Shown: piece by piece, positions 14,368 to 60,011 of the stretch | How the letters are laid out: every line of letters starts with the position of its first letter | Numbering within the stretch: position 1 is the stretch's first letter | Assembly (NCBI GenBank): GCA_041674845.1 | Contig: JBAYUY010000001.1 | Coordinates: 33,962-97,961, forward strand | Reading direction: 5' to 3' | DNA: 64,000 nt | From: Candidatus Shapirobacteria bacterium | GTDB taxonomy: Bacteria; Patescibacteriota; Microgenomatia; UBA12405 | The notes under the pieces: model-generated | Database searches by the model: none | Seen by the model: only the letters and a program-made list of their open reading frames with translations | What the model was told of the DNA's origin: nothing | Program-made: the position numbers and the translations under genes

Positions 14368-14804
14368 GTATAACCACAAAAACCGGCGACAATGGATATT
14401 CATCAGTCGCCGGTAAAAGATTAAAGAAAAATGATAAAATTTTTGAAGCAATTGGGACATTAGATGAACTCCAATCGATAATTGAGGATGAGGAAATACA
14501 AAAAGATTTATATGAGATTATGGGAAATATTGCATGTGAAACTAGTAACAAGAAACTGGTAACTAGAATAAAAATTTTAGAAGAAGAAATTGAAAAAATT
14601 GAAAAAAAATTAAAACCTTTAACAAAGTTTTTGATTTTTAAAAAAGAGAAGGCGAGGAAATTTAATTGGATTAGAACCGTAACTAGACGCGCAGAAAGGA
14701 GAGTAGTTTTTTTGAAAAATGAGAACATTTTAATTTATTTAAATAGATTGTCAGATTATTTTTATTTGAAGGCACGTGAAGCAGAGAATAACAACCAAAA
14801 ATAA
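14364..14804 (+). CDS. PduO-type ATP:cob(I)alamin adenosyltransferase (short)
   Basis: TKTGDNGYSS...AIGTLDELQS and YLNRLSDYFY motifs; ATG overlaps the nrdJ TGA (ATGA). Confidence 0.8.
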   Translation: MSITTKTGDNGYSSVAGKRLKKNDKIFEAIGTLDELQSIIEDEEIQKDLYEIMGNIACETSNKKLVTRIKILEEEIEKIEKKLKPLTKFLIFKKEKARKFNWIRTVTRRAERRVVFLKNENILIYLNRLSDYFYLKAREAENNNQK

Positions 14805-15246
14805 CTGAGGTGAAGATTAAGTCGCCTGCGAGGGTATTTTTGAAAAAAGGAATGGCTGCGATATAACAGTTGATTAATCCGGTAGTGGTGTGTGGGTATA
14901 AACCGGCAGACATCCAAACTCCGAAATTGGTGATGATATAAAATAATACCGAAGAGAAAATCGAGGTTTTGATTGTGTTTAGAGCGGTATTTTTATTTTT
15001 CAAAATTAATCCCAATATTGCAATGAGGGTAAAACTGCCATAAACATAGGGCATGGTCGAATGAAAACCAAGGAAATAGTCAGAAATAATCATGATAGAA
15101 AAAGGGAGGATTAGGGAATATTTGAAGGGTAAATAGACAGCACTAAATAATATGATGGCACTAATGGGGGAGAAGTTTGGTGGATGAGGGAAAAAACGAA
15201 GTAAAGATACAGATAAAATTATTAAAATTGGGTAAAGTTTTTTCAT
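14683..15246 (-). CDS. polytopic membrane protein, DUF6580-like putative vitamin transporter
   Basis: FFPHPPNFSPISA motif plus about 5 TM helices; last ~40 codons overlap the convergent adenosyltransferase gene and may be read-through. Confidence 0.5.
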   Translation of the reverse strand: MKKLYPILIILSVSLLRFFPHPPNFSPISAIILFSAVYLPFKYSLILPFSIMIISDYFLGFHSTMPYVYGSFTLIAILGLILKNKNTALNTIKTSIFSSVLFYIITNFGVWMSAGLYPHTTTGLINCYIAAIPFFKNTLAGDLIFTSVIFGCYSLLHVPSNKNNLTIYLNKLKCSHFSKKLLSFLRV

Positions 15247-15248
15247 AT

Positions 15249-15650
15249 TTATTTTAGGGCTTCAAAGCTCCAAACTATTTTATCATTGGATTTTAATATA
15301 TATTTATCGGCGGCAATTGTAGCGGATTGGTCGTTGACAGAATAAACCCAATATTTGCTATCAGTGCCACTTTTGACACCATTGATGCTGTTAATCATCA
15401 TGCCAAAATCGTATTGCTTGGACTCAATGTTTTTGATTGTTTTAGTTAAAACGTCAAAAACTGTTTCGTTGCTAGTTGTCTGTTGTGTAAAAGTTTCAGT
15501 TTTGTCGGTGGAATATTTTATCGTTTCTGTTATGTTGAAAGTTGAAGGAGTAGTGGGGATGATTTGTTTTGGTTTAGAAAAGTACTGATAACCGAGGGCA
15601 GAAATTAATATAAAAAATATAAATAGTATTATTTTTTTTACTGGAGACAT
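15249..15650 (-). CDS. secreted DUF4430-like (transcobalamin-like) binding protein
   Basis: Signal anchor, then INSINGVKSGTDSKYWVYSVNDQSATIAADKYILKSNDKIVWSFE, the typical DUF4430 C-terminal pattern. Confidence 0.65.
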   Translation of the reverse strand: MSPVKKIILFIFFILISALGYQYFSKPKQIIPTTPSTFNITETIKYSTDKTETFTQQTTSNETVFDVLTKTIKNIESKQYDFGMMINSINGVKSGTDSKYWVYSVNDQSATIAADKYILKSNDKIVWSFEALK

Positions 15651-15681
15651 ATGTTTATTTTACAGGATTTTTTGGCTTAGA

Positions 15682-16908
15682 GTGAGGTATAATTGGATGT
15701 ATAAATATATGATGGAAGTAATCTTGAGACCACCAGAAAATGTTATCGTGAATGATTTACGTGTTATTGGTGAAAGAATTGGTAAGACTGTCAATAAAAT
15801 TGTTGAAAATTTTTCAAAACCAGCAATAGTCGATGAACAGGCAGTGTTACTACATCAACAAAATGAACAATTGATTGAAGGTGTTCATTCATATCTTGCA
15901 CCACATCATGAAGTGTTAAGTAACGCCATTGATTTGGCTCGTAAGCCTGACGATTTTGATTCAATATTAGCTGTAGAAAAAGTAATTGAAGTAACTCATG
16001 GTTTGACTGAGACAATGGGTTTAAAAAATGTTGAACCAGTTGAAGAACTAAATTTAGCGGCTGCAATTATTGATGTTATGGAAGTAGTGAGTGGTAATAA
16101 GGAGTGGGTACCACGTTTAGCTGGTAATATGGCTAAGTGTTTTGGACAAGAAGTTGATGTTACGGGATATCTTACAAAACTCAGTGAACAAAAAATTGAT
16201 GAAGATACAAAAATGAGTATGGTTGATGAGTTAATAACTCAGTGGGCTATGACAAAAGCCATGATTGGTGGAGGAAGTCAGGGGAGGGGTGACTATAAAT
16301 TTGGAATACAAAAAGTTGGATCTGGTGGAGGTGGGAACAAAAGCGGACCAGATATTGATCCAAAAGTAGTGTTGATGACAACTGCGTCGATGTTTGCGGT
16401 AATGGGTGCACATGAATTATTGCATGCCCTACCATACTGGATATCACATATGGCATTAGTGGGTGAATTTAACTTTTATGGATTAGCTGCTTCGTATACA
16501 CCCCCGGCAAATTCGGGAATATTGGAAAATTGGTTTGGAGGTGCTTTACCATACTTGGTTTTAGGGTTACCCAGTATGTTGAAGTCAAATAAAATAGATT
16601 TGAAGAAAATATTTAATAGTGGTGGTTTATTTCAAATGTTAAATACGACCGTGGAGCAGATTTATGGAGGTGGTTTTGGACAAGCAATGGCAACTGCAAC
16701 TACGGTGACACATATTTTTGGTGGAATACCAGACTTGATAAACGGAGCTATGCAAGGGAATATATTAATGGCAGCTGCTTGGGGAATTATGACCGCTGGT
16801 GCTTTGGGTGTCGAATTTCCAAAAATTGGTGGTGGGGGTAGTAAAAAGAAAGATAATTCTCGACATACATTGCCACCAAAGTATATTCGTTCACCACCTA
16901 GAAGATAA
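15682..16908 (+). CDS. hypothetical Gly-rich membrane protein containing an HExxH motif
   Basis: 408-aa ORF (true start uncertain; ATG at 15697 possible); soluble N-terminal half; GGGSQGRG/GSGGGGNK linkers; TM segments; GAHELLHAL. Confidence 0.5.
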   Translation: MRYNWMYKYMMEVILRPPENVIVNDLRVIGERIGKTVNKIVENFSKPAIVDEQAVLLHQQNEQLIEGVHSYLAPHHEVLSNAIDLARKPDDFDSILAVEKVIEVTHGLTETMGLKNVEPVEELNLAAAIIDVMEVVSGNKEWVPRLAGNMAKCFGQEVDVTGYLTKLSEQKIDEDTKMSMVDELITQWAMTKAMIGGGSQGRGDYKFGIQKVGSGGGGNKSGPDIDPKVVLMTTASMFAVMGAHELLHALPYWISHMALVGEFNFYGLAASYTPPANSGILENWFGGALPYLVLGLPSMLKSNKIDLKKIFNSGGLFQMLNTTVEQIYGGGFGQAMATATTVTHIFGGIPDLINGAMQGNILMAAAWGIMTAGALGVEFPKIGGGGSKKKDNSRHTLPPKYIRSPPRR

Positions 16909-16912
16909 AATA

Positions 16913-16972
16913 TTTTTTTTTCGTCAATTTTTCAATTGTATTTAACACCTCGGTGGGGAGGGCGAAGATGAT
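16913..16972 (-). pseudogene. degenerate duplicate of the 3' end of the SPFH gene (direct repeat A)
   Basis: About 56-60 nt at roughly 90% identity to 18187-18246 (TCGTCA..AATTGTATTTAA..TCGGTGGGGAGGGCGAAGATGA). Confidence 0.8.
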
Positions 16973-17027
16973 GAGTTATTGTGAGTTGTTAGTTGACAAA
17001 GATGGGTGGTGTATGTAAGATACAGAT

Positions 17028-18185
17028 ATGATATACAAGAGAGAAATATGTACTAGGTTAGAAAAAGAAATTGAAACAAAAGAAATATTAATAATAACGG
17101 GAATGAGGCGGGTGGGAAAAACGACTGTTTTGCAATATCTGTTTGATAAAATTGAATCGAAAAATAAGGTGATGTTGGATTTGGAAAACCCGATGCACCG
17201 AAAATTGTTTGAAGAAGAAAATTATGATTTGGTGTGGAATAATTTGGCTCAATATGGAGTAGAGAATAAAACGAAATCGTACGTATTGATTGATGAAGTA
17301 CAAAATTTACCTGAAATTAGTAGAGTTATAAAGTATTTGTATGACCATTGGAATGTGAAATTTGTATTAACTGGATCGAGTAGTTATTATTTGCGTAATT
17401 TATTTCCCGAATCATTGTCGGGAAGAAAAGTAATTTTTGAAATGTTTCCTTTGGACTTTGAAGAGTTTTTAAAGTTTAAAGATGTAAATAGAAAAACTGG
17501 AGATAAAAACAAAATAAGGTACCAAAAGCTAATTGGATTTTATGACGAATATATGGAATATGGAGGATTTCCTGGAGTAGTTTTGGAACAAAACAGAGAA
17601 CGAAAGAAATTATTGTTGCAGGATATTTTTACTTCATATTTTGAGAAGGATGCAAAGAATTTAGCTGATTTTAAAGACATGTCGAGGTTAAGGGATTTGA
17701 TAATACTTTTGGTGTCTCGTATTGGGTCTCAGCTTGATATACAAAAACTTGCTTTAAGTTTGGCTGTTTCACGAGAGACTGTTTACAATTATTTATCATT
17801 TTTAGAACAGACATATTTTATAAGTTTGTTACCCAGATTTTCTGGTAGTCCTGATCGACAGGCAGCTGGAAGTAAAAAAATATTTTTTTGTGATTCAGGG
17901 GTGGCTAATGTTATTGGGAAACTATCTGAGGGACAGCTGTTTGAACAAAGTGTGTATCAAAACTTAAGAGGTAAAAACGAGTTGGCATTTTATAATAAAA
18001 CTGGAGGAGGGGAAATTGATTTTATTGTTAATAGTAAAAGTGCGGTCGAAGTTAAAATGACTGCCTCACGACAGGATGTGTCAAATCTCAGAAAAAGATG
18101 TGAAAGTTTAAAAATAAAAAATATTTCAATTGTTACTCATGAATACTCGGACTTAGAAGAAACAAAACCATCGGTTGATTTGTGA
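17028..18185 (+). CDS. AAA-family ATPase, COG1373 / DUF4143-type
   Basis: Walker A GMRRVGKTT; Walker B VLIDEVQ; C-terminal region resembling DUF4143. Confidence 0.75.
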   Translation: MIYKREICTRLEKEIETKEILIITGMRRVGKTTVLQYLFDKIESKNKVMLDLENPMHRKLFEEENYDLVWNNLAQYGVENKTKSYVLIDEVQNLPEISRVIKYLYDHWNVKFVLTGSSSYYLRNLFPESLSGRKVIFEMFPLDFEEFLKFKDVNRKTGDKNKIRYQKLIGFYDEYMEYGGFPGVVLEQNRERKKLLLQDIFTSYFEKDAKNLADFKDMSRLRDLIILLVSRIGSQLDIQKLALSLAVSRETVYNYLSFLEQTYFISLLPRFSGSPDRQAAGSKKIFFCDSGVANVIGKLSEGQLFEQSVYQNLRGKNELAFYNKTGGGEIDFIVNSKSAVEVKMTASRQDVSNLRKRCESLKIKNISIVTHEYSDLEETKPSVDL

Positions 18186-18186
18186 T

Positions 18187-18927
18187 TTATTTTTTCGTCA
18201 GCTTTTGAATTGTATTTAAAACTTCGGTGGGGAGGGCGAAGATGACGGTATTGTTGGGACCGTTGGTGGCATTTTCGATAGTTTGAAGAGTGCGAAGGGA
18301 AATGGCTCCAGATTCGGCTAAACTTTTCATAGCTTTGTTTAAGTTCTCGGAAGCGGTTAACTCACCTTGGGCGCGAATAATGGTGGCACGACGTTCACGT
18401 TCGGCCTCGGCTTGTTTGGCCATGACTCGTTTCATATTGTCGGGAACGGCAATATCTTGGAGACGGATACCGGTAACATCGACACCCCATTCAATAGTTT
18501 CGGCATCGACAATAGCTTTGATTTCGTCACTAATTTTTTGACGATCAGTTAATAGTTGATCAAGTTCAACACCTCCGATGACGTCGCGTAGAGCAGTTTG
18601 AGCATATTGGGATACTGCGTAACCAAAATCTTTAACTTTTAAAATTGCATCTTCGGCCTTGGTGACTTGAAAATAGACTACGGCATTAATTGAAACGGCA
18701 ACATTGTCTCGAGTTATTATTTCTTGTTTGGGAATGTCGATAGTATTAATACGAATGTCAACTTTGATTACTCGTTGAACAAGAGGGAATACTAATTTTA
18801 ATCCTGGACTAAGGGTATATGAATATGTACCTAAAGTTAGGACTATTCCTCGTTCATATTGGTTGACAATAACAATTGATTTGAAAAGTAGAATTAAGCC
18901 GATGATGATTAAGTAAGGTGTAAACAT
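18187..18927 (-). CDS. SPFH / band-7 (stomatin-prohibitin) family protein
   Basis: N-terminal TM; SPFH core; coiled region AKQAEAERERRATIIRAQGE. Confidence 0.85.
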   Translation of the reverse strand: MFTPYLIIIGLILLFKSIVIVNQYERGIVLTLGTYSYTLSPGLKLVFPLVQRVIKVDIRINTIDIPKQEIITRDNVAVSINAVVYFQVTKAEDAILKVKDFGYAVSQYAQTALRDVIGGVELDQLLTDRQKISDEIKAIVDAETIEWGVDVTGIRLQDIAVPDNMKRVMAKQAEAERERRATIIRAQGELTASENLNKAMKSLAESGAISLRTLQTIENATNGPNNTVIFALPTEVLNTIQKLTKK

Positions 18928-18989: not shown

Positions 18990-19304
18990 ATGGATTATGA
19001 ATTATTTGTTTTAGATAAAAGAGAATTTGAAAAATTTTTGGGTAAGTTGGATAAAGAGTCTCAAATAAGGATTTCTCGAGATATTAGTTTTTTGAAGGAA
19101 TATGGATCAATGTTAAAAATGCCTTTTGCTAAGAAAATCCATAATAAATTGTATGAATTAAGAACCTCAGGAAAACAAAAGATTAGGTTGATTTATACGA
19201 TAAATGGATTACAAATATATTTGATTCATTGGTTTGTTAAAAAAACAAAAAAGTTACCAATTCAGGATTTAAAAACAGCGTTAAAGCGCTTGACATTAAT
19301 ATAG
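18990..19304 (+). CDS. RelE/HigB (Gp49-like) toxin
   Basis: 104 aa; KLYELRTSGKQKIRLIYT pattern; followed by an XRE antitoxin. Confidence 0.65.
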   Translation: MDYELFVLDKREFEKFLGKLDKESQIRISRDISFLKEYGSMLKMPFAKKIHNKLYELRTSGKQKIRLIYTINGLQIYLIHWFVKKTKKLPIQDLKTALKRLTLI

Positions 19305-19325
19305 CGTTGGTGCTATATTTATTTT

Positions 19326-19616
19326 ATGGATAACTGGGAAGATATAAAAAAAGAACTGTTAAAAGACCCTGAAGTGAAAAAAGGGTATGATGATTTGGAA
19401 GTGGAGTATCAAATATTGAGCAGTCTGATTGATATCAGAAATAAGAAAAAAATGACTCAAAAACGGTTGGCATTTAAAATGGGGACAACACAATCAGCTT
19501 TGTCTCGATTTGAAATGGGTGGAACAAACCCAAGTTTGAATTTTTTAAAAAAGATAGCGGCAGCCTTGGATACCAAGTTAAGTGTAAAATTTGTTGGATT
19601 AGAAAAAACGGTGTAA
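19326..19616 (+). CDS. XRE-family HTH antitoxin (HigA-like)
   Basis: MTQKRLAFKMGTTQSALSRFE HTH_3 pattern. Confidence 0.7.
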   Translation: MDNWEDIKKELLKDPEVKKGYDDLEVEYQILSSLIDIRNKKKMTQKRLAFKMGTTQSALSRFEMGGTNPSLNFLKKIAAALDTKLSVKFVGLEKTV

Positions 19617-47683: not shown

Positions 47684-49255
47684 ACTTGGATTTGCAGGTC
47701 GCAAATCATCATATTTAGCCATGATTTCCGTATACTTTTGAGGTTCCAGCCAACCTTTATATTTACTGTCCCAGTTTTGTTTATTGGCCAGTACTCCATA
47801 TTCAGGTTTTAGGTCAACTTCCAGCATTTTGTCAGGTTTAAGTAATAGGTTCTCGCCAACAGTTAGAAGTATCATTTGTCTGTCTTCTCTAGTACCTATT
47901 TTAAACTTATTCTGACACGCCTTAGCAAAATCAATAGTCTTTTCTACTTTTACTCTCCAGTCCTCCAAATCTTCATCTGTATTTGCTAATTTTGACTTAA
48001 TTTCATTTTTTTCCTTCTCAAGATTTTGTTTCTTTTCCTTGTAAGTCGCATCGTCTATACTTTCATCCAACTTCATGTCCAAAAGCCTATTTAATCGGAT
48101 TTCTACCTTGGATAATTGGGATTGTTGATTTTTTAGTTTTTCCTCCTTAAAACCAGACTCATCCTTGTGAACAGCAGATAACCATTTATTTGACCAGTCA
48201 ACAAAATCTTGGTCGGGAGCTAAACTGGCTAAAATTTTATCAATTTGATTTAAAATGTCATTCTCGGTCAGTGGTTTTGAATGGCATTGTATATTTTTAT
48301 TTTTTCTAGTGCAGTAATAATAAACATAGGTAGCTGTTCTGCCAGTACCCTTGTAATACTTTATTTTTTGCGTTGCCGTCATTGCAGAGCCACACTCAGT
48401 ACAGCGAAATAGACCAGTCAAATCAAAAGTATGTTTTCTGGCAATCGGTTTTCCAAACTTGCCCAAAGCTCTTTGAACTACATCAAACTCTTCCCTGGTA
48501 ATCATTGGTGTGTGGGATCCTTTAAACCAGTTTCCAGAGTTCTTAGGCCATTCATACTCGCCATAATAAAATGGTTTTGTTAATAAATTGTAAAATGTTG
48601 ATTGAGAAATGACTCTTCCTTGCTGACTGGTTAATTTCCATTCTTCTGAAACTTCACGGTAAACTTCGCATGGCTGTTTCCCTGAAATTACTTCAGCAAA
48701 CATTCTTTTTACTAAAGGAAACCTTTCCTCATCAATAACTATTTCCTTAAACCCCTTTTTGCCAGTTGGTGTATTTTTGTATCCTAGTGTGGCAGGAGCA
48801 GGATACCAACCCATCTCCGCCTTAGTTTTCATACCTCTCTGACTATTTTTACCAAGATCGTCTATGAATTTTTGTGCCATACCAAATTCTAAGGACATCA
48901 ACAGACTGTCTTCGTTTATTTGAGAATACGTTTTACTAGGGGTAATGATTTCCACCTTCAAGTCTTTCATTGCCCAACTGATAGCACCACCATCAACGGG
49001 ATTTCTTGATAGTCTGTCTAATTTCCAGCATAAAATACCTTCGGCATCACCCTTTGCTAGTCCAGACATCATTTCTGCGAATAGTGGTCTGCCTGGAGCT
49101 TTTGCAGACATTGACTCCTCAAAAGTTTCAATAATTGTTAATTCAGCCTTATTGGCGAACTGTCTAAGTTCTTTAACCTGAGAAGGAAGAGATAACATTT
49201 GTTTATCCTCACCTTCTGACGATCTCCTGCAATACATGTATACTCTTTTTTTCAT
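47642..49255 (-). CDS. large serine recombinase
   Basis: YCRRSSEGE nucleophile motif; recombinase domain; zinc ribbon CTECGS...YYCTRKNKNIQC; coiled-coil. The last 14 codons are encoded by the tRNA-Asn 3' half. Confidence 0.85.
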   Translation of the reverse strand: MKKRVYMYCRRSSEGEDKQMLSLPSQVKELRQFANKAELTIIETFEESMSAKAPGRPLFAEMMSGLAKGDAEGILCWKLDRLSRNPVDGGAISWAMKDLKVEIITPSKTYSQINEDSLLMSLEFGMAQKFIDDLGKNSQRGMKTKAEMGWYPAPATLGYKNTPTGKKGFKEIVIDEERFPLVKRMFAEVISGKQPCEVYREVSEEWKLTSQQGRVISQSTFYNLLTKPFYYGEYEWPKNSGNWFKGSHTPMITREEFDVVQRALGKFGKPIARKHTFDLTGLFRCTECGSAMTATQKIKYYKGTGRTATYVYYYCTRKNKNIQCHSKPLTENDILNQIDKILASLAPDQDFVDWSNKWLSAVHKDESGFKEEKLKNQQSQLSKVEIRLNRLLDMKLDESIDDATYKEKKQNLEKEKNEIKSKLANTDEDLEDWRVKVEKTIDFAKACQNKFKIGTREDRQMILLTVGENLLLKPDKMLEVDLKPEYGVLANKQNWDSKYKGWLEPQKYTEIMAKYDDLRPANPSWLPRVDSDHKPSA

Positions 49256-58077: not shown

Positions 58078-59616
58078 TTAATACCCACACACAGCAGTCC
58101 TAATTGACTCCAAGGCGGGGAGCAGAGACTTACTTAATATAACCTTATTATTTTCCGCTAAGATAGAGATAATTGGTGTGTAGACTACTCTCGATATTTG
58201 ACGATCCTTGACATAAATCTTCTCAAAAAAGAATCTGAGGTAATGTCGTTTCAAAAACTCGGGAGCGTCAATGTAAGTTTGATGAATGTTTTGTGTAAAA
58301 GATAGAACTTCCTCAACTAAATTGATTTCTAAGTTTCCACCCTTTTCGATCTTATTGATTTCATTGCTAATGTTTTCGATCCTATCTTGAATCTCGGTGT
58401 GTTTGCGTTTAAAGACGGTTCTATCAATAGTCCCGTCGAGTAAGTTGTCCTCTAATCGATTTCTTTTGGTCTCAAGGCCGGTCTTTTGGTTGACATAGGC
58501 CTGTATTCTTGAAGCCGTGTTTTTTCTGCCATCGGCGATATGTTCTTTACACTTTTCGATCACCATATCGATAAATGTTTGTGAGAATTGAACTGTTTTC
58601 ATTAGTTCTTCAACTTGTGTTTCCAAATTTACCATTTCAATATAAACAGCTGGACAATTATTTCGGTCCCTTTTAGGACAGTGATAATAAGCTATTTTAC
58701 CTCCTCGAGCCTTTAAACTCACTTCGTCCTTGTGCCATTCGGCGGTGAATCTTTGCCCACAATGGTCACAATAAATAAAGCCTCTTAATAAAAAATTGTG
58801 TACTCGTTTGCGGATTAAAAAACTTCGGTGCTTGGCTGCCACATATTGGCAAATGTCGTACAGTTCTTTGGTAATTATTGGTATCTGATTACCCATTTTT
58901 GATTCACCATGCCATCGTATAAGGCCGTAATAGAAGGGATTTCGCAAAATATTATTTAATGTACTCCTGCCAAATATTGTGCCATTTTTAGAGACCATAT
59001 TTCGGTCCTCTAACCAATCTTGTAAATATATGAGTGAATAGTTGCCGGTTGAATAAAGTTCATATAGTTCCTTAACGATTGGAGCAACCACTGGATCAGG
59101 GATACAAGTTTTTCGTTCTCTGTCTCCACCGATTGATTTATAACCAATCGGTGGGGGAGTTGGTTGCCAACCCTCAAAATACTTTTGACTTAGGGCGTCT
59201 CTTGTCCTTTGCCCATTAACCTCACTTTCCCATTGAGCCACACTGGCAAAAATGTTTGGAATCAGACTATTTCCTCCTTCCATTAAATCACCCTCATTGA
59301 TTGACAGCAATTTAATATTCTTATCTTTTAGGGTTGCGTACATTCGGGTGAAGTCGTTAACATTTCGAGCAAACCGATCAATTTTATAAATAATCACTGC
59401 GTCTACCGGTTCTTCTTCAATCAACTTAAACATTCTTTGTAACTCTGGCCTGTCGGCTGTTTTACCACTTTTTCCACTATCATCAAAAATTTCCTTTATG
59501 CGATATTCACGATCCTTAGCGTATTGCCGACATTGTCTAATCTGATTGTCAGTTGAGAATCCCTCATTCTTTTGTTCGTCAGATGAAACACGGATATATA
59601 GATAACAGTTTTTCAT
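58078..59616 (-). CDS. large serine recombinase
   Basis: YIRVSSDEQ nucleophile motif; DRFARN; recombinase domain; zinc ribbon CDHCGQ...YYHCPKRDRNNC; coiled-coil. Confidence 0.85.
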   Translation of the reverse strand: MKNCYLYIRVSSDEQKNEGFSTDNQIRQCRQYAKDREYRIKEIFDDSGKSGKTADRPELQRMFKLIEEEPVDAVIIYKIDRFARNVNDFTRMYATLKDKNIKLLSINEGDLMEGGNSLIPNIFASVAQWESEVNGQRTRDALSQKYFEGWQPTPPPIGYKSIGGDRERKTCIPDPVVAPIVKELYELYSTGNYSLIYLQDWLEDRNMVSKNGTIFGRSTLNNILRNPFYYGLIRWHGESKMGNQIPIITKELYDICQYVAAKHRSFLIRKRVHNFLLRGFIYCDHCGQRFTAEWHKDEVSLKARGGKIAYYHCPKRDRNNCPAVYIEMVNLETQVEELMKTVQFSQTFIDMVIEKCKEHIADGRKNTASRIQAYVNQKTGLETKRNRLEDNLLDGTIDRTVFKRKHTEIQDRIENISNEINKIEKGGNLEINLVEEVLSFTQNIHQTYIDAPEFLKRHYLRFFFEKIYVKDRQISRVVYTPIISILAENNKVILSKSLLPALESIRTAVCGY

Positions 59617-59618
59617 AT

Positions 59619-60011
59619 TTATTTTATGGATAAATTTGTAAAGTCTAAATACGTGTCGGGTCTCTCGGGACCAAGGTCAACAGCAACAACAGTTATTCCT
59701 GGGCTGGCAAATTCAATCATTTTTCTTACGATTGAATTACTTTTTCTTCCTAATCTTGTGAAATCTGCAACAATAAGGTATTCGACGTTATAAAGTCGCT
59801 CTAAGCACTTAACCAATAAAAATAGTCCTCTTCTTGTAATTTGATTTCCACTAATCCCTCTGTCGTGAATTACTCTTCTTACGATAACGCCTTTTTCTCT
59901 GGCATATTTTCGACATTTTCTTTCTTGTTGAGCGAGCGAGATAATTCCAGCATATTTTTCTGTTTTCGCTTTTCGAACATATATTAAACACGATCTTTTA
60001 TTTCTATACAT
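59619..60011 (-). CDS. resolvase-domain-only paralog lacking the canonical nucleophile Ser
   Basis: 130 aa; IYVRKAKTEK in place of Y-x-R-V-S-S/T; retains DRGISG and ADFTRLGR motifs; 2-nt gap to the recombinase gene. Confidence 0.6.
   Translation of the reverse strand: MYRNKRSCLIYVRKAKTEKYAGIISLAQQERKCRKYAREKGVIVRRVIHDRGISGNQITRRGLFLLVKCLERLYNVEYLIVADFTRLGRKSNSIVRKMIEFASPGITVVAVDLGPERPDTYLDFTNLSIK

Follow-up and report, generated by a model that had tools for sequence, protein, structure and literature searches.

In a genome of Candidatus Shapirobacteria, the 3' end of an intact SPFH gene is present twice, and the two copies enclose a compact cassette of ~1.2 kb that contains one predicted promoter and a single ATPase-nuclease gene. 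Same-genus relatives that lack the ATPase gene have one copy of the gene end, an independent metagenome contig shares the insertion by descent, the same cassette stands at an unrelated site elsewhere, no mobility gene accompanies it, and similar scars recur around related genes. Among published categories, insertion with long target duplication appears to fit best, and we put the chances at about even that the locus arose in this way through the break-repair or replication machinery of the host, without a dedicated recombinase. In the window, by which we mean the whole stretch of 64 kb that was analysed, the locus comprises the following features:

14683..16908, no strand assigned: genome-specific left flank with a 187-aa membrane protein, a 133-aa secreted protein and a 408-aa ORFan (context, outside the cassette)
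16913..16982, minus strand: R1, the orphan (dead) SPFH 3' end, about the last 22 codons, with the stop changed from TTA to TTT and an in-frame TAA upstream
16983..17027, plus strand: 5' end of the cassette, a degenerate operator-like half-palindrome and a predicted promoter
17028..18185, plus strand: AAA_14 + DUF4143 ATPase / PD-(D/E)XK nuclease gene, 385 aa, the sole cargo (Pfam; PADLOC PDC-S01)
18187..18255, minus strand: R2, the live duplicated segment, the SPFH stop codon and about the last 22 codons, 1 nt past the ATPase stop codon
18187..18927, minus strand: the target gene, intact, encoding an SPFH/Band_7 protein of 246 aa (Pfam Band_7, 1.9e-40)

The repeat search returned a direct repeat of 59 nt (16913-16971 versus 18187-18245, spacing 1274 nt) with 53/59 identical positions (90%), in agreement with the ~58 bp and ~90% given by a sequence-only reading of this DNA, and with gaps the local alignment grows to ~70 nt (16912-16982 versus 18185-18254; 63 matches in 70-71 nt, two indels). 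Its 23-nt core, TTCGGTGGGGAGGGCGAAGATGA, occurs at two places only in the 64 kb, compared with 0.00 expected from 100 shuffles, and the alignment of the upstream with the downstream flank of the ATPase gene scores 30 SD above shuffles. The downstream copy holds the SPFH stop codon (TTA on the plus strand, 18187-18189) and the last 19-22 codons, where ~19 had been proposed. On translation in frame, the orphan copy reads IIFALPTEVLNTIEKLTKKK and the SPFH C-terminus VIFALPTEVLNTIQKLTKK*; in tblastn, SPFH residues 218-246 match the orphan copy with one stop inside. We rejected the extension of the orphan to 17002 that this search gave: positions 16983-17027 are the promoter block of the cassette itself, conserved at unrelated sites, and only ~70 nt are target-derived. 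The ATPase gene is the only gene between the copies, as had been noted, and the suggestion that integration had duplicated or restored the target 3' end is borne out by one complete end, one orphan and a whole SPFH gene.

The SPFH gene is a housekeeping membrane-protein gene. Orthologues with 77-95% identity are present in 7 genomes of the same genus or family, set in the conserved backbone RNR-CobAT-[variable]-SPFH-SIMPL. Two same-genus genomes, G013 and G007, are empty sites: SPFH is 95% identical at the amino-acid level, the gene end is present in a single copy only, and the ATPase gene is absent. Their left neighbour is a 345/348-aa gene whose stop and that of SPFH are 1-3 nt apart, and in the genome under study (G000) the left flank listed above stands in its place. 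Single-copy relatives without the ATPase exist, as the sequence-only reading had anticipated, but the particular empty site that it predicted, a 408-aa gene directly followed by SPFH, is absent; the 408-aa gene was found only in this genome, and neither 41 related genomes nor a collection of 5.8 billion proteins contain a homologue of its product.

The metagenome contig L056, which comes from ERR14373514 and is the closest SPFH relative, has the layout CobAT-p348-orphan-ATPase-SPFH, in which the orphan occupies the position of the live SPFH stop of the empty-site genomes. Because the order orphan-cassette-SPFH is common to this genome and L056, the insertion is older than their split. Nucleotide identity between the two is 86.4% for SPFH, higher than the 84.3% and 82.7% to the empty-site genomes, and 85.8% for the ATPase gene; these similar divergences are consistent with co-inheritance since a single event. 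In addition, the synonymous states CTC CCC ACC are found in the orphans of both and in the live copies of that clade, but not in G013 and G007, and R1 matches its own R2 at 53/59 positions but the G013 and G007 gene ends at 49/59 and 43/59. As the orphans carry the clade's own synonymous states, the duplication was made from the clade's own gene.

The cassette has a GC content of 31%, compared with 32-42% for neighbouring genes, a difference that carries little weight. Its predicted sigma-70 promoter comprises TTGACA (16993-16998), 17 nt, TAAGAT (17016-17021) and 6 nt to the ATG, with a scan score of 10/12. The block GTAAGTTAyTAcTTGACA-N17-TGTAAGAT is also found upstream of homologous ATPase genes at unrelated sites, where similarity ends just 5' of the block; a comparison of ~70 homologues places the start of similarity ~5-20 nt 5' of the -35 box and its end at the stop codon. 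L060-62 carry the same promoter-plus-ORF unit, with 83% nucleotide identity, at a site unrelated to this one. The ATPase gene occurs once in this genome. Its product matches Pfam AAA_14 (1.7e-32, 112.6 bits, cut-off 27) and DUF4143 (1.8e-22, 80.2 bits, cut-off 28.1), a pair equivalent to COG1373 and PDC-S01, and in PADLOC it matches all PDC-S01 models (best 4.9e-68, 227.9 bits). Walker A (GxRxxGKT; G25-K31-T32), Walker B (DE; D89-E90), ExD (E329-x-D331) and ExK (E341-x-K343) motifs are all present, and 64-73 of the 73 homologues conserve them. By these matches, the cargo belongs to the candidate phage-defence family PDC-S01. In one survey this family was the fourth most common candidate defence in prokaryotes, with ~39,000 copies and multiple cross-domain transfers, its experimental validation being pending (PMC12988326). 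The literature that we found on the family contains nothing on mobility of the gene or on flanking target duplications. Viral contigs searched for a vector yielded no close relatives of the cargo subfamily; phage records hold only distant (<30%) members of the ATPase family, and distant members are common on plasmids.

The scar is a recurrent property of the family. Flanking duplications of 21-137 nt were found at 16 of 43 paralogous loci in the order and at 12 of 56 loci of the close subfamily (21-37%), compared with 17 of 497 ordinary ORFs in this genome (~3%). Several high-scoring 'flanked' ORFs on its small contigs C5, C9 and C33 were not counted as cassettes; they resemble tandem paralogues, in DNA that seems to be Bacteroidota-like contamination. 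At L160 the duplication is perfect (67/67). In about two thirds of the independent cases (~9/14), the stop codon of the intact gene lies within 6 nt of the cassette. Across the family the cassette ends are ragged, with boundaries that vary by ~20-45 nt, no conserved sequence was found at the cassette 3' end, and the duplication length varies more than six-fold; the same scar also surrounds other cargo, including an EamA gene in this genome and acyltransferase, RhuM-like and AbiEi-like genes. The varying duplication length, the ragged ends and the non-ATPase cargo argue against a dedicated site-specific enzyme, and the analogy with integration at tRNA or tmRNA sites, raised when the repeat was first noticed, fails on the same three grounds.

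Mobility functions were searched for at several levels. Neither the ORFs nor the Pfam domains within the insert or next to it include an integrase or transposase, as previously reported; the nearest serine recombinase lies 31 kb away, and no recombinase adjoins SPFH in nine related loci. The repeat search found no terminal inverted repeats at the insert, and no tRNA, tmRNA or Rfam family was found to be associated with it. The insert is thus distinct from integron cassettes, having no attC-like inverted repeat, Rfam match or adjacent integrase, and because the ORF stop codon lies 1 nt from the repeat there is no room for an attC. It also differs from insertion sequences and transposons (no terminal inverted repeats, no transposase domain, a duplication of varying length) and from integrative elements, with no recombinase in or adjacent to it and no fixed ends or att core among related cassettes. 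The genome does encode recombinases of the tyrosine type and several of the large serine type, two of the latter within the window, as well as ComEC, DprA and RecA; Ku was looked for in this genome and not found.

Nobusato and co-workers reportedly described, in Gene in 2000, how restriction-modification genes insert with long target duplication. Such insertions were documented, at both restriction-modification and Type IV nuclease genes, by a screen (Furuta, Abe & Kobayashi, NAR 2010; PMC2853133). The published footprint consists of direct repeats of >30 bp and variable length, which correspond to a single copy in a relative with the empty site and frequently overlap the 3' end of a gene, with no integrase or transposase and mostly in competent organisms; flanking repeats were significantly more frequent at such genes than at average genes (PMC2853133). 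That screen admitted repeats of >30 bp aligning to a single copy around inserts of <20 kb without a mobility gene such as an integrase, transposase or phage gene (PMC2853133). Here, the repeat measures 59-70 nt, the gene end is single in G013 and G007, and the insert is a 1.2-kb unit with one ORF and no mobility gene. The cargo departs from the restriction-modification genes of the screen, being a lone AAA_14 + DUF4143 ATPase-nuclease; because a lone mcrA (Type IV) gene is listed among such insertions (PMC2853133), restriction-modification cargo is a criterion of the screen and not of the phenomenon.

We therefore propose, as the reading to which we give an even chance, that a common ancestor shared with the L056 lineage acquired the ~1.2-kb promoter-plus-ORF cassette at the very 3' end of SPFH. 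The process might start with a break at the gene end, or with a fork stalling there; the foreign cassette, probably taken up as DNA, would be copied or ligated in at this point, so that its ATPase-stop end and the SPFH stop codon came to lie 1 nt apart. Synthesis could then resume ~70 nt behind the break, at the microhomology TTGT/TGT of the promoter-side junction, re-copying the gene end. The promoter-side end of the cassette would thereby be joined ~70 nt inside the SPFH gene and those ~70 nt would come to lie on both sides of the insert, the gene-body copy keeping SPFH intact and the other being the orphan, which is now decaying. The agent is likely to be the cell's own break-repair or replication machinery rather than a dedicated recombinase, and the break and template switch are the steps that we infer; the cargo nuclease may have played some part in provoking the break, if any. 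Three points count against this scheme. A random break-and-copy process does not predict abutment to the stop codon, unless gene ends are assumed to be preferred sites of breakage or stalling. The ~ten-fold enrichment of the scar at the ATPase family could mean that the cargo protein takes an active part. The junction microhomologies, only 3-6 nt in AT-rich DNA, could be due to chance.

Stop-codon abutment is better accommodated by an import anchored in homology, which we nevertheless regard as rather unlikely. A donor relative would already have carried the cassette beside its own SPFH stop, and the DNA would have entered either by one homologous crossover inside SPFH combined with an illegitimate join to the gene end of the recipient, ~70 nt inside it, or as a circle of cassette plus gene end by a single, Campbell-type crossover; in both forms the resident gene end would be displaced and left as the orphan. 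This would explain why the repeat similarity goes no further than the stop codon and why, in so many independent cases, the cassette lies directly beside the stop of the live gene. The left flank of the locus is hypervariable among relatives, so that a second homologous arm would often be lacking; RecA, ComEC and DprA are encoded, and the flanking repeats would permit excision and re-entry by homologous recombination. However, such import requires an earlier clean insertion somewhere and leaves that primary event unexplained. Sliding-window identity along the 3' part of SPFH gave no signal of a mosaic tract from a donor, and both copies have the clade's own synonymous states. At L160, moreover, the target genes overlap, so a duplication-free donor arrangement is impossible there, yet the repeat is perfect.

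The cargo might instead be an autonomous single-gene element, its ATPase/nuclease cutting the target in a staggered manner at variable distance and promoting insertion of its own gene; we consider this unlikely. The scar is about ten times commoner at the ATPase family than at ordinary genes, the nuclease and ATPase motifs are intact and conserved, and the cassette always consists of the minimal promoter-plus-ORF unit, with the operator-like palindrome at the 5' end. Furuta et al. (PMC2853133) also proposed that the common property behind long-target-duplication insertions is a cargo that makes double-strand breaks. Against this stand the absence of a conserved 3'-end sequence and of terminal repeats, the variable boundaries and duplication lengths, and the unrelated cargo genes, one of them in this genome, that bear the same scar; the enrichment is equally explicable by recent and frequent acquisition. 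It is accordingly doubtful that AAA_14/DUF4143 (PDC-S01) genes are very abundant, unrecognised, autonomous single-gene mobile elements whose ATPase-nuclease opens the chromosome beside a stop codon and, with no classical recombinase, drives the insertion of its own promoter-plus-ORF unit with a long and variable target duplication.

A recombinase acting in trans, with the repeats as attL and attR of an integrase-less, cis-mobilisable element, is very unlikely. Direct repeats with an identical block of 22 nt, located at the 3' end of a gene, would suit it, as would the tyrosine and large serine recombinases of the genome, but none lies within 30 kb or beside SPFH in the nine related loci, the repeat is the clade's own gene end and not an element-borne mimic, and targets, repeat lengths and cassette ends all differ across the family. 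Large serine recombinases use minimal 2-nt cores, and to our knowledge they do not make repeats of 60-130 nt. Chance similarity, low complexity or an assembly artefact has a negligible probability: it can draw on nothing more than an AT-rich T-run at one repeat end, the similarity stands at z = 30 against shuffles, with 0.00 chance matches, and it is already refuted by the same structure in the independent assembly L056 and by the translation of the orphan copy into the SPFH C-terminus.

These results give the natural history of one locus, with an empty site, a filled site in two lineages, the same unit elsewhere and no recombinase. The scar, present at between one fifth and one third of the related genes, ties the PDC-S01 family to the restriction-modification insertions with long target duplication, and suggests a general, recombinase-free entry of nuclease-type defence genes into compact genomes that leaves their neighbours unbroken. 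The abutment of the cassette to the stop codon of an intact gene provides a concrete handle on the mechanism.

Among known systems, integrase-mediated integration into gene or tRNA 3' ends resembles the locus in that a repeat of the target 3' end surrounds foreign DNA and the target stays functional; in contrast to such systems and their integrase-less derivatives, an integrase is absent both from this locus and from the same site in relatives, the resident gene is the source of the repeat, and neither repeat length nor cassette ends are fixed across the family. The C-terminal displacement arrays of rhs, cdiA and T6SS effector loci likewise leave orphaned gene ends beside new DNA. Those arrays recombine through the conserved gene body as homology and swap a functional C-terminus for a new toxin tip, whereas at this locus the SPFH end is simply restored and the newcomer forms a cistron of its own, in the opposite orientation to SPFH. 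The insertions with long target duplication share with this locus a small defence-type nuclease unit, variable repeats and the lack of an integrase. They involve restriction-modification genes, whereas the present case is a single PDC-S01 gene without a methyltransferase in a host of the Patescibacteria (CPR), and stop-codon abutment, which is not stated in that work, is usual here and in related loci. The scar had previously been described for restriction-modification and Type IV nuclease genes only; here it surrounds a single ATPase-nuclease gene.

The ATPase gene in the window lies between two copies of the end of its neighbouring SPFH gene, arranged as follows.

15682-16908: 408-aa Gly-rich membrane protein, an ORFan, left of the first repeat copy
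16913-16982: first repeat copy (the orphan)
17028-18185, plus strand: ATPase gene, 385 aa, with AAA_14 and DUF4143 matches exceeding the Pfam cut-offs
18187-18255: second repeat copy, the stop codon and final ~22 codons of the minus-strand Band_7/SPFH gene (246 aa)

A repeat search of the window gave 53/59 identity between 16913-16971 and 18187-18245, and gapped alignment allowing two indels carried the similarity to 16982 and 18255, with 63 matches per 70-71 nt. The sequence-only reading was therefore right to describe a direct repeat of about 90% identity, to place the SPFH stop and last codons in the second copy, and to see a single gene, 17028-18185(+), between the copies. Coincidental similarity, which it had kept in view, does not explain the repeat: a 23-nt core occurs at two sites in the window and at no others, with 0.00 expected by chance, and the two flanks of the cassette (promoter plus ATPase gene) align to each other with a score 30 SD over shuffles. 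Translated in the SPFH frame, the first copy reads IIFALPTEVLNTIEKLTKKK versus VIFALPTEVLNTIQKLTKK followed by the stop in the live gene. Because mutation has removed its stop codon (TTA to TTT on the plus strand), with an in-frame TAA a short way upstream of the mutated stop, the first copy is a dead duplicate of the SPFH gene end.

The cargo protein matches all PADLOC models of PDC-S01, a candidate phage-defence family (best E = 4.9e-68). Its Walker A (G25..G30-K31-T32), Walker B (D89-E90) and PD-(D/E)XK residues (E329-x-D331, E341-x-K343) are kept in 64-73 of 73 aligned homologues. A promoter scan found a sigma-70 promoter, TTGACA-17-TAAGAT, ending 6 nt 5' of the ATG, and the 1.22-Mb genome holds one copy of the gene. 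PDC-S01 is reported to rank fourth in abundance among prokaryotic candidate defences, and multiple transfers across domains have been reported (PMC12988326); DUF4143 has been catalogued as a PD-(D/E)XK family, with function unassigned there (PMC3424549). In the papers found on DUF4143 or PDC-S01, flanking target duplications are not described for the family.

In genomes of the same genus and family, which are MAGs of varying completeness, the backbone of the locus runs class II RNR, PduO-type adenosyltransferase, a variable gene, the convergent SPFH gene, in some a Gp49/HTH pair, and SIMPL. Two of these relatives, G013 and G007, encode SPFH proteins with 95% identity to that of the window and no close ATPase homologue; the SPFH gene end is present once, and its stop codon lies 1-3 nt from the end of the variable left neighbour. 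By this comparison both loci are empty sites, and the repeat without the ATPase, an arrangement that would have counted against the sequence-only reading, was not seen in them. The empty site predicted by that reading, with the 408-aa gene directly beside SPFH, does not exist in that form because the left neighbour has been replaced by genome-specific genes, including the 408-aa ORFan, for which searches of 41 related genomes and of a 5.8-billion-protein collection gave no homologue. Its place is now taken by the ORFan together with a membrane protein of 187 aa and a secreted protein of 133 aa; 15682-16908 and 14683-15650 stand where relatives have a 345/348-aa Zn-ribbon gene. The right breakpoint of this replacement, which is later than the cassette insertion, is no more than ~4 nt from where the orphan once had its stop codon. 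At 14683-14804, the 3' ends of the 187-aa ORF and the adenosyltransferase gene overlap by ~120 nt on opposite strands. Between SPFH and SIMPL, 18990-19616 holds a toxin-antitoxin pair (Gp49/HigB-like and HTH). G007 and G023 share the pair, and G013, G018, G002, G005 and G009 lack it; this position is a second variable slot of the locus.

A filled site is found in the metagenome contig L056 (Logan ERR14373514), whose ATPase is 88% identical to that of the window. Its order is adenosyltransferase, a 348-aa gene orthologous to the 345-aa gene of G013 (78% aa identity), orphan SPFH end, the same promoter as in the window, ATPase and SPFH, and the orphan starts 1 nt past the stop of the 348-aa gene, the position of the live SPFH stop in the empty sites. 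At the nucleotide level, the SPFH gene of the window's genome is 86.4% identical to that of L056, versus 84.3% with G013 and 82.7% with G007, and the ATPase genes of the first pair are 85.8% identical. The simplest history is a single insertion in the ancestor of this pair, once it had split from G013 and G007, with co-inheritance since then. In both orphans the synonymous states are CTC CCC ACC, as in the live copies of their clade, against CTG CCA ACT and CTA CCT ACA in G013 and G007, and the window's orphan is closest to its own live copy (53/59, versus 49/59 for G013 and 43/59 for G007). The duplicate was therefore copied from the clade's own SPFH gene and did not come from a distant donor. 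In L056, at 2886-2932, the ATPase stop is directly followed by a mini-copy of 16 nt, TTACTTTTTTGTCAAT, taken from the SPFH end. Next come the GC hairpin CCGCCATAGGCGG and an SPFH C-terminus that has been remodelled (..QKLSTKSK and stop); a second rearrangement has taken place at this gene end.

Repeat-flanked copies of related ATPase genes, which the sequence-only reading had proposed to look for, do exist. When the 400-500 nt upstream of each gene were aligned to the 400-500 nt downstream, a flanking repeat was found at 16/43 distinct paralogous loci of the same order (above the 99th percentile of mismatched-pair controls), at 12/56 distinct loci of the close 393-aa subfamily (score at least 16) and, at that same score, at 17/497 of all ORFs of 250-600 aa in the window's genome, where the top scorers lie mostly on small contaminant-like contigs; these fractions are descriptive because kin are not independent. 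Contigs C5, C9 and C33 of this genome encode Bacteroidota-like proteins that carry T9SS-type C-terminal sorting domains and form tandem paralogue arrays, and are likely bin contamination, in agreement with a 6% contamination estimate. The flanking repeats range from 21 to 137 nt in length and from 60 to 100% in identity. In the clearest young case, L160, the duplication is perfect (67/67) and spans the ends of two convergent genes that overlap there; the final codon and stop of the ATPase come from the repeat. Typically, 40-70 nt separate the end of the upstream copy from the ATG, which puts that end at the promoter, and the downstream copy starts -28 to +30 nt from the stop codon. Among independent cases in which the repeat and a neighbour's 3' end overlap, about 9/14 have the stop of the intact gene no more than 6 nt from the cassette.

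The ATPase family is not alone in carrying the scar. It also occurs at genes neighbouring ATPase loci (acyltransferase, RhuM-like, AbiEi-like), and two further genes on contig C1 of the same genome, outside the window, are flanked by repeats.

C1:658100-658969, minus strand: EamA-type transporter gene, 289 aa, an unrelated cargo with the scar seen at the ATPase
C1:681948-683342: gene for a 464-aa protein of no known family, with a flanking repeat that resembles a promoter/intergenic segment

Copies of the 3' end of an adjoining 188-aa gene, duplicated over 96 nt at ~80% identity, bracket the transporter gene (C1:657988-659067), with the repeat edge at the stop codon of the 188-aa gene. The repeat around the second gene (C1:681897-683412) is direct and 44 nt long (42/44).

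Thousands of 393-aa homologues, ~60-68% identical to the ATPase, occur in Patescibacteria, and others in bins labelled Woesearchaeota, Anaerolineales and more; same-genus genomes hold nothing closer than paralogues of 25-36% identity. On contigs L060-62, a copy 83% identical in nucleotides has a nearly identical promoter and unrelated flanks. Across ~70 loci, shared similarity runs from 5-20 nt 5' of the -35 box to the stop codon, so the moving unit is promoter plus ORF, about 1.2 kb (~16983-18186 in the window). At its upstream end an operator-like palindrome is common, TTGTCAAGT..ACTTGACAA, and in the window this palindrome is degenerate. Many ATPase genes, including those on L073, L075 and L060-L062, lie tens to a few hundred bases from a contig end, which points to assemblies breaking where the flanks are repeated or vary between strains.

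The best reading, to which we give an even chance, is that host machinery captured the cassette at the SPFH gene end, where a break had arisen or a fork had stalled, and that synthesis then restarted ~70 nt further back, at a short microhomology. The microhomologies at the junctions are short and lie within AT-rich DNA; on the promoter side, with the junction marked by a slash, the sequences are GGTATTGT/TGG in the target, aTGT/AAGTTA in the cassette consensus and TATTGT/GAGTT in the window. The genome encodes ComEC, DprA and RecA, and Ku was not detected in it. The weak point of host-mediated capture is the stop-codon regularity. Homology-anchored import from a relative already carrying the cassette beside SPFH, which we consider unlikely, would account for that regularity equally well, but it leaves the primary events unexplained and no donor tract was found in the window's SPFH gene. 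An active role of the cargo nuclease in insertion is quite improbable: the ten-fold enrichment of the scar would favour it, and the ragged cassette ends and mixed cargo tell against it. A site-specific recombinase or classical transposase is disfavoured, as variable duplication length, ragged ends, mixed cargo and missing mobility genes speak against it: the sequence-only reading had noted the lack of a recombinase, and indeed the insert and its immediate surroundings are free of integrase and transposase genes, tRNAs, Rfam elements and terminal inverted repeats. The tyrosine recombinases of the genome lie far from the cassette, and the closest large serine recombinase is 31 kb away. Large serine recombinase genes (48809-49243 and 59176-59987, in frames of 450-550 aa) are unlinked to the cassette, and the genome has six Resolvase-domain matches.

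The variable duplications, ragged ends, mixed cargo and missing mobility genes fit a published event type, insertion with long target duplication, which is known for Type I-IV restriction-modification genes, a lone mcrA included, is found mostly in competent species, and for which the authors suggested double-strand breakage by the cargo as the common factor (PMC2853133). The insertion in the window is an unusually well-resolved further case of this event type and not its first discovery; what is new to the type is the cargo family.
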